Positions 18,459 through 64,000 of a stretch of DNA of 64,000 nt are shown here, one piece after another. The translations under genes were made by a program, and so were the position numbers. This DNA comes from an uncultured Alphaproteobacteria bacterium. Lineage in GTDB: Bacteria > Pseudomonadota > Alphaproteobacteria > RF32 > CAG-239. The notes below the pieces were generated by a model. The model was given only the letters and a program-made list of their open reading frames with translations. It had not been told where the DNA came from and made no database searches. Location: contig CAKQTH010000002.1 in NCBI GenBank assembly GCA_934276635.1, positions 11,822 through 75,821 on the forward strand. Reading direction: 5' to 3'. Position 1 is the stretch's first letter; every line of letters begins with the position of its first letter.

Positions 18459-18489
18459 TTGACAACACCTCACCGGGGGGGGGTAGAAT
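18459..18489 (+). promoter_or_regulatory. sigma-70-like promoter with a G9 homopolymer in the -35/-10 spacer (candidate phase-variable promoter)
   Basis: TTGACA (18459-18464), a 19-nt spacer that contains GGGGGGGGG (18475-18483), then TAGAAT (18484-18489). This lies 95 nt upstream of the autotransporter ATG. Confidence 0.55.
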
Positions 18490-18584: not shown

Positions 18585-21500
18585 ATGAAAAATTATGTTT
18601 TCAAGAGAATTCTGTTAACAACAAGCGTGGCTTGCGGCGCGCTTTTTGTCTCGGGGAATGTAAATGCGGCAACCGTGTCTACATGGGAAGAATTTAAGGC
18701 GGCGATTGCGGCCGGAGAAAGCGAGATTGTGCTTGCGGACAACCTGACGGCGACCGATATAATCACAATTACAAGTCCGCTCAGCATCAAGAGCGCGGAC
18801 GGACAGGTTTATAAAATTTCTGCGGCTGACGGGCTGAAATTTTCCGACTCCTTTATCAAATATACCGGCACATCGTCTTCTCCGCTGCTTAATTTGAGCA
18901 ATGTGCAGATTTCAAACATTTACCGTTTTAACAACACCAACGCCGGAACATACGCTGGCGGCGTAATCAACAACTCGGGCAAAATCGGCACGATTGACGG
19001 TGTGTTTTCTGACAACAAAATGGAATATAATCTAGACAGCGGTGGGCATACCAGAGTGTACGGCGGTATAATCTATAACAGTTCGTCCGGCTCCATAGAT
19101 AAAATCGGCGGCACATTTTCCAGCAACGACTTTGTCAGCCGCGTTCCGTGGAGCAGCCTCAACTCCTGGGGCGGCATAATCAGCAACCAGGGCACTATCA
19201 ACGAAATTGATGCAAACTTTATCGGAAACACTATGTCGACAGAAGATTATAGAGATAACTATACTTATGGCGGAATAATACAATCGAGCGGAAAAATCGG
19301 CACAATCAGAGGATTGTTCAAAGACAATATATTAAAATATTACAACTACACCAGCTACTGGAATGAGCAAAGGGGTAGTTTGATGTATATACAAAACGGG
19401 GTAGACAATATCTATGCCGACTTTATAAACAACTCCCTATATAATGAAGCCAATGACACTCTGACACGTGTCCACGCATCTTTAAACTTAGGTTTTATAA
19501 CCTTGCAATATAACAATATAAACGATTTTGTATCGTCTTTTGCTGAAAATAAGATGAATGTAACACTTACCGGAAACGGTAACGGATTTGTCAGAATAAA
19601 TGATATATACCAGACAACCGCAAAAAATATTGTGTTTGATATGCATAACAACAAAGTTGATGCAACAGCTGAAGGTTATATATATTATGAAAGCTTCAAC
19701 ATGGAAGGGGATTCAACTGATGTTACATTTAATAATTCCAAATTCTATGAAAATGAAACAACATTAGAATCCACCACAAAAAACATTTATGCCTCCGGCT
19801 TAATGACTGTATCCAGCAGCGGTGCGAAAGCAACATTTAACAATGTGCTGTTTAAGGACAATATTACTACCGCAGTCGGGAATTCGACCATCAGCGGCGG
19901 CGGTATCAAAAACAACGGTACATTAAACATTAACACCGCGCTTTTTGAAAACAACCTGATTAATTCCACAAATGCGGCAAACGGCGGAGCAATTTCCAAC
20001 GCAAAAACCGCCTCGATTATTGCTGATTTTGTCGGCAACAAAGCTTTCGCCGGAACGGATACTTCCACCGACACCAACGCCGTGGCCAGAGGTGGCGCGG
20101 TTTACAACTCCGCAGCCGGAACAATCGAAAAGCTCAGCGGCGTATTCTCTGACAACAAAGCGTATGCGATCGGCAAAACAAAATCTTCCGCTCTCGGCGG
20201 CGCGGTCTATAACAAAGGAAACCTCACTCTTTCTAATATCGTGATGGCCGACAACAACGCGGTTGCCGAAACCGGAACAGCCGACGAAACAAACAAGCCG
20301 GAAGCGCTCGGCGGTGCGGTTTATAACCTCGGAGATTTGCATATCAACGGTTCTGACGGCTTTGAAAACATTATCTCCGGCAACAAGGCGACTACCAAAA
20401 TCGGCGAGACCGAAAACACCGTGCAAAACGGAATATACACCGCCGCGGCCGACAAGAATGTATTTGTTAATATGACGACCGATTCAAAACTGTTCGTCTA
20501 TGACACCATCGACGGCGTTGAGGCCGGATACAACCTAAAATTTGACGGCGATGAAACCGGCCAGGCGTTTATTTATAACAATATTATCAACGCCAACATC
20601 TTTTTGGACAATATGTATCTGAACATTGCTCAAGAAGAATATCTCGACAATGCGAAAACTCTGACGCTTTCTTCCGGTCATTTGGATTTGATGAACGGAA
20701 AAGTCGGAACAATCCGCCCGGCAATGACTTTGACCGGCAATGTTCTGCTCTCCGTTGATGTCGATTTGTCCAACAAAATTATGGACCGCTTTGCCGATGG
20801 CGCAACCGCTACGGCCGGAAAACTCACAATCTCGCAGATAAATCTTCTTTCTGACGCTCTGCAAGATGTTGTGTATGTTCCGTTTGCCGAAGACAGCTGG
20901 CGCGACAAAGTTGATACCACCGTTACCGACGCCGTATATTCGAGCATCTATAAATATACGGTTTCGTACGAGGCTGACGGCGACGAAAACGGCGAAAATC
21001 GCGGCTCGTTCAAATTTGTCCGCACTTCGGTCATAAACCCGAATATTGAGGCGTCTTCAATCGCGGGAATCATCAACGGGGCAATGACGCAAGGCTTGAT
21101 TTATCAAAAAGCCCTGCAAGGCACCGATAACGCCGCACTCATCGGCCTCGGTATGTCTTCCGGCGATGAAAAGAGCGAATACGCTATCGGACAAATGTGG
21201 ATAAGACCGTTCTTGAGCAAAGAAAATGTTGATCTCAAATATTCCAACACCGTCCGTGCACAGGCTCGTGGTATGGTCTTTGGTATCGACAGCAACGACA
21301 TTCATCTTGACAACGGCGGAGAGCTCACAATCAGCCTCTATGGCGCAGTCGTCGACTCCGACCAAAAGTTTGAGCAAAACAAAGTTAAACAAACCGGAGG
21401 CAACCTCGGCGGATCTATCGTGGCAACATACGGCGACTTCTTTGCCGCAGTCACCGCCAATATCGGTATGAGCGATAATGAAGTCAACACCGTCACCGGC

Positions 21501-21974
21501 AAAGACAACTTTAATATCTATCTCGGCGGTGCGGCGTTCAAAACCGGCTACAATATCAGCCTTAACGAAAGCAAAGACCTGGTTATTCAGCCGAACTTCC
21601 TGACTTCGTACACCGCGCTGAAAACCGAAAATTATCACACTTCGGCCGGCGTTCATGTAAAGTCTGATATGCTGCATGTGGTAGAAATCGCTCCGGGCTT
21701 TAAGCTCATCAAAGAATACGACCACGGATTTAAGGCATATGCTACCATGACGGCGGTTTGGAATGTTATAATCGACGGCGAGGTTCGCGCAAACAATGTG
21801 GTTCTGCCTGACTTGAGCGTCAAACCATACATTGAATACGGATTCGGTTTTGAAAAAGACTGGAGCCAAGAAGAATGGAACCCGGTTGACCTCACAACAT
21901 TCGCGCAAATCGTCAGACGCGACGGCGGACGCGAAGGTTGGGCAGGAACCGCGGGTATCAAATGGAGCTTCTGA
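18585..21974 (+). CDS. autotransporter adhesin with Pmp-type (GGA[IV]xN / FxxN) passenger repeats and a C-terminal beta-barrel
   Basis: Signal peptide MKNYVFKRILLTTSVACGALFVSGNVNA. Repeated GGAIYN/GGAVYN...F.GN motifs. The C-terminus ends in GIKWSF (aromatic terminal residue). 1129 aa. Confidence 0.8.
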   Translation: MKNYVFKRILLTTSVACGALFVSGNVNAATVSTWEEFKAAIAAGESEIVLADNLTATDIITITSPLSIKSADGQVYKISAADGLKFSDSFIKYTGTSSSPLLNLSNVQISNIYRFNNTNAGTYAGGVINNSGKIGTIDGVFSDNKMEYNLDSGGHTRVYGGIIYNSSSGSIDKIGGTFSSNDFVSRVPWSSLNSWGGIISNQGTINEIDANFIGNTMSTEDYRDNYTYGGIIQSSGKIGTIRGLFKDNILKYYNYTSYWNEQRGSLMYIQNGVDNIYADFINNSLYNEANDTLTRVHASLNLGFITLQYNNINDFVSSFAENKMNVTLTGNGNGFVRINDIYQTTAKNIVFDMHNNKVDATAEGYIYYESFNMEGDSTDVTFNNSKFYENETTLESTTKNIYASGLMTVSSSGAKATFNNVLFKDNITTAVGNSTISGGGIKNNGTLNINTALFENNLINSTNAANGGAISNAKTASIIADFVGNKAFAGTDTSTDTNAVARGGAVYNSAAGTIEKLSGVFSDNKAYAIGKTKSSALGGAVYNKGNLTLSNIVMADNNAVAETGTADETNKPEALGGAVYNLGDLHINGSDGFENIISGNKATTKIGETENTVQNGIYTAAADKNVFVNMTTDSKLFVYDTIDGVEAGYNLKFDGDETGQAFIYNNIINANIFLDNMYLNIAQEEYLDNAKTLTLSSGHLDLMNGKVGTIRPAMTLTGNVLLSVDVDLSNKIMDRFADGATATAGKLTISQINLLSDALQDVVYVPFAEDSWRDKVDTTVTDAVYSSIYKYTVSYEADGDENGENRGSFKFVRTSVINPNIEASSIAGIINGAMTQGLIYQKALQGTDNAALIGLGMSSGDEKSEYAIGQMWIRPFLSKENVDLKYSNTVRAQARGMVFGIDSNDIHLDNGGELTISLYGAVVDSDQKFEQNKVKQTGGNLGGSIVATYGDFFAAVTANIGMSDNEVNTVTGKDNFNIYLGGAAFKTGYNISLNESKDLVIQPNFLTSYTALKTENYHTSAGVHVKSDMLHVVEIAPGFKLIKEYDHGFKAYATMTAVWNVIIDGEVRANNVVLPDLSVKPYIEYGFGFEKDWSQEEWNPVDLTTFAQIVRRDGGREGWAGTAGIKWSF

Positions 21975-34448: not shown

Positions 34449-34944
34449 CTAGAAAGAAATGATAATGGTGTTATCTTTTTCTTCATGAACATCAGCGACG
34501 GCTTCTGCCAGGGCATAAAATGTTCGGTGTCCGGTCGGCATGGTTGTCATTCCGATGGTCGATGAGCCGGAGTCTGAAGTTGAGCCAGACCCGTTGCCGG
34601 TTGAAGAACCCGTACAGGAATTTGAACCTGTATCAGGTTTTGTCTCTTCCCCGCCGCTTGAACTCTGGTTGCCGTTGTTTGAATCAGAACCGCCGTTGTC
34701 AGGGGTCTTACCTAAAGTTGTTCCAGCTTTGCCAGTCCTCAGAAAAAGGATTGAATTTAGCATTTTTAAGAAAAGTTGATAAATCGAGTTCTACATTTTC
34801 TCCGGTATCTTCACCAAAATAAGAAACAGAGTTAATCTTATTGGAGTCTTACCAAGATGATGTCCCTATCAATATAGCCGCGTTCGCGTTGACGCAGATG
34901 GCAAGAGCGGTGGAAAGGGAGAGGAAAAAGGGTTTACTTTTCAT
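34449..34944 (-). pseudogene. fragmented small secreted/lipoprotein-like gene: a signal-peptide ORF (34849-34944), then a stop, an 85-nt gap and a +1-frame Gly/Ser-rich ORF (34449-34763)
   Basis: [22 protein letters not shown] is a signal peptide ending in a stop after 31 codons. The downstream 104-aa ORF is low-complexity G/S/T/N-rich and ends in ...IIISF. A G9 tract lies 39 nt upstream of the ATG. Confidence 0.3.
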
Positions 34945-34982
34945 AATACATATTCCTTTATAAAAATATTTAAAAACATCTA

Positions 34983-34991
34983 CCCCCCCCC
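34983..34991 (-). repeat. G9 homopolymer (C9 on the plus strand) followed by TAGA, upstream of the fragmented lipoprotein-like ORF
   Basis: Read directly from the sequence: the minus strand reads ...ctctcGGGGGGGGGtagatgttttt... Confidence 0.9.
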
Positions 34992-61380: not shown

Positions 61381-61733
61381 AAAAATAGTACCTGTAAAAA
61401 ATATAGGGTATTTTTTTTGCGAAATCAAGTCGTATTTAGGATTTGCATAAGATTTTGCGCAGTGCGGACGCTTGCAAACAAAAATCGACCGGAGGGGAAG
61501 ACGCAGGAATTGTAATTATATGTGTATTAGGAGAACGTAATTATTTTTCCCTGCGCCCGCCTCTCCGGCCGACTATGTTTTTTTAATGTTTTATTTTAGC
61601 GTTTTTCCTTTCTTTTTTGTCTTTTCAAACAATAGGATTTTCACCCTCATACCTTTCGGAAGTTCCACCCGGCAGTCGGATATCTCACCCCTCCCCGCCG
61701 GGCGGAACTTCTTTTCTAAGCATCATATTTTAT

Positions 61734-63794
61734 TTAAAATGATTGTCCAAATGTTTTCTTCCCTTTACGATATCTTTGCAGGCCATTCTTCATAAAGTAT
61801 ATCGACCTGATTTTGCATGTTGTTCCGCTGCTATTTTCGTTTACATCAGAAACTTGCCATTTTCCGTTATAGTAATACAGTTTATATCTTGTGTATTCAT
61901 CACCTTTGTTTGTTCCAACGCCCCAATAACAGTTAGTCGTCGTAAACTGGTCTCCTCCGGCTTTCTTCAGTGCTTCATTAATTGACGTAATATTTTCCGC
62001 AATTTTTTCCAGCATCTCTTTGGTCGGCAGAGCATGTAATGCAGTCGCGTTACAATCAGCTATCCTTTGGACAATTGAACATGCCGAATTGTTAATCTTT
62101 GCCTTATAACAGTTCCTATCATAATCTGTTTCTCCGGCACCATTTATATAATTTCCCTTGTTGCCGTTGCATTCCGGATCGTCTTTCAGCGACACCGCGT
62201 GGTCATAATAGCCGAAGCTTCCGCCATTTGTATAAGGACCGTTCAGCTTGACCCCGGCCATATTACCTCCCAAATCAACCTTGGATTGATTTGACGGCCA
62301 ATAGAAAATGAGGCCATTGTCATCAGTATGCGGGGAGTTCGTGCTGGTTCCATACATATAGTACCAAGTAGAAGATGAACCTTTACCCTTTTTTATACAC
62401 CTTACATATCCATAATCACCAGCTGTCTCAATATACCATAGGCCTCTGCTTGTGGTAATCTCCTTTACTCCTCCAATATTTGCTTCATGATAACTGCTAT
62501 TTATTTCTTTGCACTTTTTCGGACGATAGCAAACTGCTCCGTTTTTGTTTTCATCAACACAAATTGCGGCTTTGTGGTTGGGATTTCCGTCATATGAAGA
62601 ATTCTTACAATCGCCTTCCGCCACATAATATTCAGTCGGACAAGTTGCTTTCTCTTTATAACAAGTTTTTGAGGTATCGTTGGTGGCGGTTGTTGTGTCA
62701 CAGGTTTTTCCGCTCGGGCACGAACCAAGTATATATCCGGTCGGACATACCGCTTTTTCCTTCTTATAACAGGTTAATGTTCCCGTATCTTCCGTAACTT
62801 TTACACATACATTTTCCGCATCTCCGCAACTGCTGCTGAAAGTATAATTTGCATTATATCCGCTACATGTCTTAGAACATTTTACACTATATGTTGTATT
62901 TGTATCCGTTTCACAAAGCTTCGGCCTGCCTTTTATATTAAAACATGTATCTTTCGTCCAGCCGTTCAGACATTTATAATCATCATACAAATCTCCGCAC
63001 TGGTTGCCGTCAACCGCAAAATTTCCGGTAAGATTATTCGAAGCATATTTATATCTGGCCGGGCATTTACATGTTCTGCAGGTTAGCTCTTTTTGCTGTG
63101 AATGCGTATATGCTTTATCTTCAAGCAATGGTGCTTTACATTCACCTGCCTGATAACTGTTGCCGGTGTCACAGGTTACTGTTGTATACAGTGTTTCTCC
63201 CGCATTATCGCCGTATTTATATGTGCATGCTCCGGTATAAGTAAATCCCGGTGTTTCCTTTTTGTATTTATATGTGCTGTCGCAATCACAATCTTTATAC
63301 AAAACCTTATTTGCATTATTTGCATTTGCCCCATACAGCATCGTGCAGATTCCGCCGTCTGCAACCGGAGTTTGGCCAGCACTGCATACACTTGAATTTG
63401 TCTCTCCGTCTTCTCGTGTTATTTTGGATAAAGTATATTTATAATCACTTTTGCAAGTTGCGCGGTAGAGCTTTTTGCCGTCTATTTTTGTGCATTCTTC
63501 AATATCATACGCTGCCTCGTTTGTCGGTCTTTCTGTCAGCATATAATAGTTCGGATTACAGGTACATTTTACAAATTTCTCACCTTTTGAGACGCAGGTA
63601 TCGTATACGATTTCTTTAACTCCATCGCACGATTTTTCTTTGTATCCCAAACTATTGCAATCTTTTGTTTCGATGCTCGGTTTGTCGCACCCGCCGACGA
63701 TAAAACATACATCAGCGTTACTCGGCTCTACCCCCCCCCACCATGAGGCTACGAAAAGGGTTAGAAACCACACCGTCAGATTTGATTTTCTCAT
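61734..63794 (-). CDS. large secreted Cys/Tyr-rich protein (686 aa) with an in-frame G9 tract in its signal peptide; the C-terminal region resembles DUF1566 (Lcl C-terminal-like)
   Basis: Signal peptide MRKSNLTVWFLTLFVASWWGGVEPSNA|D with an AAAGGGAG ribosome-binding site. At least 50 Cys, many in CxC, CDCD or CKC motifs. The C-terminal LHALPTKEML...YWGVG...YYNGKWQV...CKIRSI is reminiscent of DUF1566. Confidence 0.65.
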   Translation of the reverse strand: MRKSNLTVWFLTLFVASWWGGVEPSNADVCFIVGGCDKPSIETKDCNSLGYKEKSCDGVKEIVYDTCVSKGEKFVKCTCNPNYYMLTERPTNEAAYDIEECTKIDGKKLYRATCKSDYKYTLSKITREDGETNSSVCSAGQTPVADGGICTMLYGANANNANKVLYKDCDCDSTYKYKKETPGFTYTGACTYKYGDNAGETLYTTVTCDTGNSYQAGECKAPLLEDKAYTHSQQKELTCRTCKCPARYKYASNNLTGNFAVDGNQCGDLYDDYKCLNGWTKDTCFNIKGRPKLCETDTNTTYSVKCSKTCSGYNANYTFSSSCGDAENVCVKVTEDTGTLTCYKKEKAVCPTGYILGSCPSGKTCDTTTATNDTSKTCYKEKATCPTEYYVAEGDCKNSSYDGNPNHKAAICVDENKNGAVCYRPKKCKEINSSYHEANIGGVKEITTSRGLWYIETAGDYGYVRCIKKGKGSSSTWYYMYGTSTNSPHTDDNGLIFYWPSNQSKVDLGGNMAGVKLNGPYTNGGSFGYYDHAVSLKDDPECNGNKGNYINGAGETDYDRNCYKAKINNSACSIVQRIADCNATALHALPTKEMLEKIAENITSINEALKKAGGDQFTTTNCYWGVGTNKGDEYTRYKLYYYNGKWQVSDVNENSSGTTCKIRSIYFMKNGLQRYRKGKKTFGQSF
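63731..63739 (-). repeat. G9 homopolymer (C9 on the plus strand) inside codons 18-21 of the Cys-rich protein's signal peptide, followed by TAGA
   Basis: The coding strand reads TGG TGG GGG GGG GTA GAG (W W G G V E). Confidence 0.9.
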
Positions 63795-63850
63795 ATCTAC
63801 GCTCCCTTTCTACGCATATAAATTATCAACCTCTCTTCTAAAAGGCTGTA

Positions 63851-64000
63851 TTCAGTTTACCTGATTTATTTTATTGTTTCAACTCTTTTTTCTTTTTGTT
63901 TTTGCGCTTTAATTTTCTTTATATATTGTTGCACATTTTTGTTGTGTTCATCAAGAGTTTTTGCAAAATTATGCCCGCCGCTGCCGGTCGCCACAAAATA
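63851..64000 (-). CDS. possible 3' end of a CDS running off the window edge (low confidence)
   Basis: The minus-strand frame is open from 64000 to a TGA at 63851-63853 and encodes ...YFVATGSGGHNFAKTLDEHNKNVQQYIKKIKAQKQKEKRVETIKINQVN. It is short, AT-rich and could equally be non-coding. Confidence 0.15.

Follow-up and report, generated by a model that had tools for sequence, protein, structure and literature searches.

We propose that the gene at 61734-63794 on the minus strand of a 64,000-nucleotide stretch of contig CAKQTH010000002.1 from an uncultured alphaproteobacterium, the whole of which is called the window here, belongs to a small family of Sec-exported, disulfide-rich proteins that is present in several copies and is under poly-G switching, a reading to which we assign a probability of roughly 70%. 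Its open reading frame (ORF), with the start ATG at 63794-63792 and the stop codon at 61734-61736 according to the ORF list and the sequence, encodes 686 amino acids (aa). The poly-G tract falls within the codons of the signal peptide, where slipped-strand mispairing at replication would alter the frame between signal peptide and mature protein. In the ON state (G9 in the window allele, G8 in the alleles with a TCTATG context) the full pre-protein would be made, exported via Sec and cut before D28, and its 44 Cys would be oxidised in the periplasm. In the OFF state, one G gained or lost would bring a TAG or TAA within 20-25 codons, leaving a 20-25-residue peptide and no export. As the loci would switch independently, presumably often and reversibly within a population, its cells would show differing combinations of C-terminal head domains, either as bet-hedging or as antigenic variation, following the logic of Neisseria opa. 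Phase variation usually targets exposed structures, and from this, the lectin-like head and the export signal, the likeliest role would be that of a variable binding or adhesin-like exoprotein selected by host immunity, phage or changing ligands. The mechanism as such is already known; the novelty is an undescribed protein family in an unstudied uncultured lineage.

Length variation of the poly-G tract

Tract length was compared across 18 cassette-bearing loci, namely the window and 17 further loci with DNA from gut metagenome contigs, all sequences being consensus metagenome assemblies (MEGAHIT, SPAdes). The copies have the same 5' cassette in common, in the order ribosome-binding site, signal peptide, poly-G tract and then SNA-DVCF, and the tract of the 17 further loci is G7, G8 or G9. 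In the TCATGGT context, to which the window belongs, G9 is in frame and all alleles are ON (window, L001-L003, L011 and L012), no OFF allele being seen. In the TCTATG context G8 is in frame (ON: L009, L010 and L158), while G7 leads to a TAG after 20 codons (OFF: L004, L005, L159 and L160) and G9 to a TAA after 24 codons (OFF: L006, L007, L008 and L014). The ACTATGT context of the distant homologue P0005 again has G9 in frame (ON: L013), with no OFF allele seen, so that the tract is kept in frame despite a protein identity of only 43-54%. The ON and OFF states of the tabulated loci fit this frame rule exactly, and the ORFs 3' of the tract, which comprise 560-770 codons, are intact in all 18.

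Three near-isogenic contig pairs, the members of each coming from different samples, differ essentially at the tract alone: L014 and L158 (8157 bp, 1 mismatch, 1 gap; G9, OFF, versus G8, ON), L006 and L159 (7878 bp, 0 mismatches, 1 gap; G9 versus G7), and L006 and L160 (5797 bp, 0 mismatches, 1 gap; G9 versus G7). Therefore the tract mutates faster than the rest of the region, and a change between G7 and G9 proceeds by steps that must cross the ON length. Length polymorphism between near-identical sequences, as known from contingency genes, was in this way found for the copies with the same cassette, and switching of the window copy itself is inferred from these relatives. The earlier note on this DNA had proposed phase variation and had suggested a search for paralogues with polymorphic tracts; such paralogues were found (G7, G8 and G9), although outside the window, and the proposal holds for paralogues and orthologues, whereas the window allele itself was G9 in all 6 contigs.

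In the window allele, the coding strand across the tract reads TCA TGG TGG GGG GGG GTA (W18 W19 G20 G21 V22), the run spanning codons 19-22. The same note had placed it in codons 18-21, which is correct except at the end, where it is off by one codon, the last G falling in codon 22. When slippage was simulated, G9 gave 686 aa, G8 gave 21 aa (TAG) and G10 gave 25 aa (TAA). Truncation by a shift of one nucleotide in either direction, likewise proposed, was thus borne out, but the stop falls inside the signal peptide and not after it. The natural OFF alleles (L004-L008, L014, L159 and L160) terminate at the same stops as the simulated ones, after 20 or 24 codons. Frame loss upon gain or loss of one G is one mark of a contingency gene; another is a long 5' coding homopolymer beyond what composition predicts. 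The G/C homopolymers of the window number 103 at length 4, two at length 5, one at length 6, none at lengths 7-8 and three at length 9. The expectation for runs of at least 9 is ~0.07 under a first-order Markov model (0.022 for G and 0.047 for C) and ~0.14 with independent and identically distributed letters, and G9/C9 runs are enriched ~40-fold. GGG is the least-used Gly codon (8.4%). A gap at lengths 7-8 followed by a spike at 9 is the pattern that selection for long tracts yields, and the G9 tract is not a chance run.

Part of the evidence weighs against a reversible switch. By locus (each named after a neighbouring gene), the yceG copy, which is that of the window, is ON in every contig, and the allele with the exact 5' cassette of the window is G9 and ON in 6/6 contigs, while the rpoC and eno copies are OFF in every contig (7/7, as G7 or as G9) and the nrdG copy is ON or OFF. 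Locus-specific fixed states are therefore possible. Moreover, a second G9 of the window, in a promoter at 18475, shows no variation in two other assemblies (L161 and L162, 100% identical over 4.7-6.4 kb) and is thus unchanging in three, so that G9 runs here are not always polymorphic. These observations would suit an explanation in which the tract is an unusual way of encoding Gly-Gly and the out-of-frame copies are dead paralogues fixed in strains. We regard this as improbable, since the OFF copies retain unbroken ORFs of the above-mentioned length past the tract, and one allele exists both as G8 (ON) and as G9 (OFF) with 1 mismatch per 8.1 kb. Furthermore, G7 and G9 versions without any mismatch over 7.9 kb imply repeated tract mutation with no other mutation meanwhile. 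The enrichment of G/C runs of 9 in the absence of runs of 7-8, and the retention of the tract in the distant homologue, speak against dead paralogues as well.

It could also be argued that all copies are truly in frame and that the differing lengths arose through errors of sequencing or assembly, given that homopolymers are error-prone and that several contigs have low coverage (3-12x). Assembly error is unlikely as their source, and this explanation as a whole very much so, because the same tract length comes up again in separate samples and with separate assemblers (G7 in L159 and L160; G9 in L007 and L008; G8 in L009, L010 and L158), because both MEGAHIT and SPAdes yield several tract lengths, and because the G9 at 18475, which serves as a control, is the same in the window, L161 and L162. 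Contigs at 68x (L009 and L158) behave like those at low coverage, and a difference of 2 nt (G7 versus G9) is atypical of single-base consensus error.

The frame changes have left traces in protein collections. Gene callers mis-started OFF alleles, which appear with frame-shifted N-termini (P0007, P0009, P0024 and P0025) or with a start at MCFIVGG just past the tract (P0010, P0011 and P0027). One 90% cluster joins P0022 (ON) with P0003, P0020 and P0021 (OFF calls), and another consists of P0010 and P0025, both OFF and called in different frames. As OFF alleles are mis-annotated in this manner, with the signal peptide lost and false N-termini, the family is under-recognised as secreted. The coordinates of the gene and its parts are listed in Table 1.

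Table 1. Position of the gene, its expression signals and its protein regions in the window.
Feature	Position	Strand	Basis
Complete gene of 686-aa Cys/Tyr-rich exported protein	61734..63794	-	ORF list, sequence
Candidate sigma-70-type promoter TTGAAA-17-TAAACT (tentative)	63854..63882	-	promoter scan, consensus match only
Shine-Dalgarno-like GGGAG, 7 nt 5' of ATG	63802..63806	-	read from sequence; kept in paralogue 5' cassettes
Signal-peptide coding region, residues 1-27 (MRKSNLTVWFLTLFVASWWGGVEPSNA), predicted signal peptidase I cut before D28	63714..63794	-	inspection, hydropathy
G9 homopolymer (C9 on the plus strand), proposed slipped-strand switch, in frame (ON) in the window allele	63731..63739	-	sequence; related loci G7/G8/G9
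Out-of-frame stops just past the tract: TAG 63730-63728 (G8), TAA 63720-63718 (G10 or G7)	63718..63730	-	simulated tract lengths
Conserved N-terminal Cys-rich region, residues 28-245, family-wide, 22 invariant Cys/Gly/Tyr/Phe/Leu/Ser/Val columns	63060..63713	-	alignments A1, A6
Middle Cys-rich modules, residues 246-427, two CPTGY...C...CYK-type units, partly shared	62514..63059	-	alignment A1
C-terminal head domain, residues 428-686, common only to P0002, P0005 and P0023	61737..62513	-	alignments A1, A2, A4
DUF1566/Lcl_C-like segment, residues 588-664 (ALPTKEML...CYWGVG...CKIRS)	61803..62033	-	hhalign, phmmer

The exported protein, its family and its heads

The 686-aa protein is exactly P0018 and is ~99% identical to P0001, both from human-gut metagenomes. 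Its N-terminus has by inspection the Sec n/h/c layout (MRK, SNLTVWFLTLFVASWWGGV and EPS-N-A, then DV after the cut), with small residues preceding the cut, i.e., a basic n-region, a hydrophobic h-region and small residues at -3/-1 as required by signal peptidase I (SPase I). The 9-residue Kyte-Doolittle mean reaches 2.4 in this segment, which is the sole hydrophobic one in the protein. The mature part (residues 28-686, 659 aa) contains 44 Cys (6.7%) and 54 Tyr (8.2%). Hence the description of a real ORF for a Cys/Tyr-rich secreted protein with a ribosome-binding site and a signal peptide, given in the earlier note, is consistent with what inspection yields. Sigma-70-type promoter matches around the gene are no more numerous than in shuffled sequence. 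A lipobox for SPase II was sought, but the residues before C30 (A-D-V after polar EPSN) do not fit the pattern, and no lipobox, beta-barrel or known secretion or sorting motif was recognised in the 686-aa protein. For this reason the protein could remain periplasmic, which again weighs against the proposed role, although it may get as far as the cell surface or be released into the medium.

When 5.8 billion clusters were searched through a word index, 13 family proteins were retrieved, none with a Pfam domain and each of them from a gut-type metagenome (Hadza or other). HMMER, run exhaustively on 1.84 billion representatives, likewise gave 13 matches only. In the family alignment the Cys framework is invariant over residues ~28-245; the Cys-rich modules that follow, as far as ~427, are shared only in part, and the C-terminal domains beyond them are of at least six unrelated kinds. 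Internal repeats in the N-terminal 400 residues are limited to a weak pair of CPTGY units (346-381 and 382-427, z = 3.2). Pfam and NCBIfam searches with the window protein gave no match (none at E ≤ 1 in the Pfam hmmscan), no credible Pfam match was obtained with six further members of the family, and a single-query sequence search of the PDB returned at best a spurious asparaginase (E = 0.3). No match was obtained in the PDB with the A1 and A4 profiles either, and a profile of the N-terminal region found P0015 only, with no link to an annotated family. Among GTDB representative genomes scanned with the family profile, the 54 pattern matches included no relative, and in JGI metagenome contigs scanned for the 16-mer 3' of the tract, all 63 matches were due to chance, none having the cassette before it. 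Consequently, the earlier remark that no clear homologue is known was borne out for the N-terminal ~400 residues. AlphaFold2 modelled the full protein from a 13-sequence alignment with a mean predicted local distance difference test (pLDDT) score of 50.6.

Homologue P0008 has an unrelated, tract-free signal peptide, ending in ARA and fused at the same A-DVCF junction, in keeping with the predicted cut. Signal peptides without a Gly-Gly or poly-G site were observed in P0008 (LALAYGYAQTARA followed by DVCF) and in P0012-P0014 (FLSLWCSPSDA followed by GVCF); judging from these N-termini, they would be natural 'locked-ON' versions.

The head of the window copy is very probably related to the lectin-like DUF1566/Lcl_C domain. 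When an alignment of four window-type heads without any DUF1566 sequence (A4) was compared by hhalign with 35 PF07603 proteins (A3), a match of 97.0% probability (E = 1.1e-10) was obtained over 75 columns, residues 588-664, covering the C-terminal half of DUF1566 with the motifs LP..E.L, YW and C.(I/V)R. This is homology at profile level to bona fide DUF1566 domains. In line with it, phmmer matched residues 531-664 to P0017 (E = 1.2e-5), a lipoprotein-like protein of 235 aa that passes the Pfam threshold for Lcl_C/DUF1566. A first DUF1566 profile search was set aside as circular, having included P0017, which is itself a DUF1566 protein, and was superseded by the hhalign comparison. On the other side, the relation is limited to those 75 columns, hmmscan reported no family at E ≤ 1, PF07603 with its gathering threshold included, and the C-terminal domain modelled by AlphaFold2 from a 115-sequence alignment reached a mean pLDDT of 51.0, these models being too poor for a test of the fold. 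The closest homologue, P0005, has no Lcl_C match in Pfam. Residues 588-655 (pLDDT 74-87) are the sole well-modelled part of the head, and Foldseek searches of the PDB with this low-confidence model found nothing below E = 0.45, 8q4e_A ranking 15th (E = 1.8, template modelling score 0.28). Thus, a DUF1566-like C-terminus, which the earlier note had seen from the letters, is upheld as regards the final third of the head, while Pfam hmmscan does not find it. Given this relation, the heads may bind host, glycan or phage ligands.

A conserved N-terminus joined to unrelated, swappable C-termini is also what would be expected of polymorphic toxins or bacteriocins, in which a conserved delivery region carries variable toxic domains; phase variation would then govern antagonism. 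Unannotated ORFs of 122 aa and 97 aa 3' of the rpoC-locus copies could be immunity genes. However, no toxin or immunity Pfam domain occurs in any head, the neighbours downstream are not the same at each locus (Bax1-I, LysR or a gene on the opposite strand) and offer no consistent immunity-like partner, and the heads are themselves Cys-rich, the sole recognisable one being the lectin-like DUF1566. We therefore consider toxins even less probable than dead paralogues, and prefer switching of exported binding or adhesin-like proteins.

Relation to known contingency loci

Homopolymer contingency loci are best known from few cultured pathogens, namely Neisseria, Haemophilus, Campylobacter, Helicobacter and Treponema. 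The opa genes of Neisseria form a multi-copy family scattered over the chromosome, with a repeat tract in the signal-peptide coding region, independent switching of the copies and combinatorial expression, and the paralogues swap segments by recombination. In genetic logic they are closest to the window family, by virtue of the multi-copy family, the repeat in the signal-peptide coding region and the independent switching. Contrarily, the Opa tract consists of CTCTT pentamers and that of the window gene is a homopolymer; Opa is an 8-stranded outer-membrane beta-barrel from a betaproteobacterial pathogen, whereas the window protein, of 659 aa, is modular, Cys-rich and of a soluble type, has no Opa or beta-barrel signature and comes from an uncultured gut alphaproteobacterium. 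Pfam, which gave no match of any kind, does not place it in the Opa or outer-membrane protein beta-barrel family. Neisseria has 11 phase-variable opa genes (PMC11868660).

In tract type and position, Gardnerella nanH3 and the poly-G genes of Campylobacter and Helicobacter are closest. In nanH3, a poly-C tract (8-14 C) is located at the signal-peptide region, ~100 nt into the ORF, with one in-frame length, and annotation of the out-of-frame alleles misses the signal peptide (10.1101/2020.09.16.300947), the same artefact as at the OFF alleles of the window family. Length variation within colonies was shown experimentally for nanH3 (10.1101/2020.09.16.300947), whereas the window family is known from consensus assemblies. 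Moreover, nanH3 is a single gene of a Gram-positive host with a known enzyme domain, the window family being multi-copy and unannotated. The contingency genes of Campylobacter and Helicobacter belong to another lineage and another protein family than the window gene, which is not a sequence member of the Opa, nanH3 or Campylobacter/Helicobacter protein families. Campylobacter jejuni and Helicobacter pylori have low-GC genomes in which G8-G11 tracts are strongly over-represented in the 5' part of surface-structure genes, some tracts being located in promoters, and both genera lack mismatch repair.

As regards the head, DUF1566 is in the Lcl protein of Legionella pneumophila a C-type-lectin-like head binding sulphated glycosaminoglycans, and Lcl is a type II-secreted surface-associated adhesin (PMC11162425). 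The likeness is confined to the aligned segment and motifs described above, so that only about half of the domain can be recognised. The window head has 7 Cys, whereas the C-terminal domain of Lcl is without disulfides (PMC11162425), and the stalk is Cys-rich in the former and collagen-like in the latter.

With the window family, the same contingency strategy is now found in a gut commensal lineage that is known here from metagenome-assembled contigs alone, and the proteins of this family are probably those that the host, phages or neighbouring cells encounter on these bacteria. Tract length could be read from existing metagenomic reads, which would allow one to ask if ON and OFF states follow host, diet or immune status.

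Genomic contexts and further G tracts

The window gene is surrounded by ordinary housekeeping genes, with Bax1-I, rpmH, rnpA, yidD, yidC and a gene for an EngB-like GTPase downstream and yceG/mltG upstream. The YidC encoded in the window is 58-65% identical to that of dozens of metagenome-assembled genomes of uncultured gut Alphaproteobacteria (human, ruminant and chicken), none being closer, and these carry labels such as 'Candidatus Scatocola', 'Azospirillum sp.' and 'CAG:495'. The window therefore derives from a gut alphaproteobacterial lineage without a close species representative in the collection searched. A spirochaete origin, which the poly-G tracts, the Hadza samples and the low GC content might have suggested, is rejected on this ground.

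The cassette (X) was found in four contexts, namely yceG-X-bax1-rpmH (window), nrdD-nrdG-X-lysR, rpoC followed by a 778-aa gene and X, and eno-X. Several of these occur in one sample with differing ON/OFF states. As judged from the contigs, this is the combinatorial layout of a contingency family with at least four loci per genome. The genes of the yceG locus (P0001 type) and the nrdG locus (P0004 type) have a ~666-bp 5' segment in common that is 98-100% identical (window 63160-63825), and the flanks occur in all four combinations: yceG-P0001-bax1 (window, L002 and L003), nrdG-P0004-lysR (L011), nrdG-P0001-bax1 (L001) and yceG-P0004-lysR (L012). This is due either to homologous recombination between paralogues, with rearrangement of the chromosome, or to assemblers having passed from one copy of the repeat to the other. 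In addition, the window differs from L001-L003 in a small patch (FTYTGAC versus FSYSGTC); here the difference agrees with the paralogue, a sign of possible gene conversion.

TAGA directly follows each of the long G tracts, in the window (18475-18487, 34979-34991 and 63727-63739) as well as at the rpoC-locus promoter tract in L006 (213-225) and L159 (308-320), the variants being TAGAAT, TAGATG, TAGAGC and TAGACT. Per position, TAGA occurs at a frequency of 0.0013, and of 106 shorter G runs only 2 have it behind them. It may act as a -10 box in the promoter tracts, and in the coding cassette it furnishes the TAG stop of the OFF frame. It is tempting to see in all this an unrecognised system of antigenic or functional variation, in which at least four loci have one recombining promoter/signal-peptide/poly-G cassette, a novel disulfide-rich stalk and swappable heads, one of them lectin-like, with independent switching plus recombination that rearranges the chromosome, and with a common G9-TAGA motif. 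This extended scheme is, however, tentative and in our opinion rather doubtful. If it were true, the occurrence of G9-TAGA at coding as well as promoter tracts would suggest that these switches have one origin or obey one sequence requirement.

The G9 at 18475-18483 (plus strand) lies between the two boxes of a promoter close to consensus, TTGACA-N19-TAGAAT (18459-18489), ~95 nt upstream of an ORF (18585-21974) for a 1129-aa signal-peptide protein. This protein has repeats of the GGA(V/I)xN type, a C-terminal end in KWSF and no Pfam match, and it looks autotransporter- or Pmp-like from these features. The tract looks like a transcriptional poly-G switch, the putative spacer being 2 nt over the optimum. 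A similar arrangement, TTGACA-N9-G9-TAGACT with an 18-nt spacer, was observed at the rpoC locus of related strains (L006 195-230 and L159 290-325), with G9 in both contigs. It precedes the gene of a 778-aa protein without a Pfam domain, located directly upstream of the family copy, and is another candidate for a promoter-type poly-G switch.

Immediately 3' of the stop codon of the window gene, a GC-rich long inverted repeat (GAAGTTCCGCCCGGC...GCCGGGTGGAACTTC; 61659-61711, minus strand) is present, without a T-run after it. An intergenic stretch of ~100-140 bp (about 61489-61627 in the window) recurs 3' of paralogues in L009, L011 and L012 with 87-91% identity. These elements may represent a terminator or else a short element repeated between genes. 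The third G9 of the window (34983-34991, minus strand) is located ~40 nt upstream of the ATG at 34943 of a signal-peptide ORF that stops after ~31 codons, beyond which Ser/Gly/Thr-rich coding sequence continues in other frames. Possibly, this is a gene for a secreted protein that has been frame-shifted or has decayed, its tract being of the promoter type.

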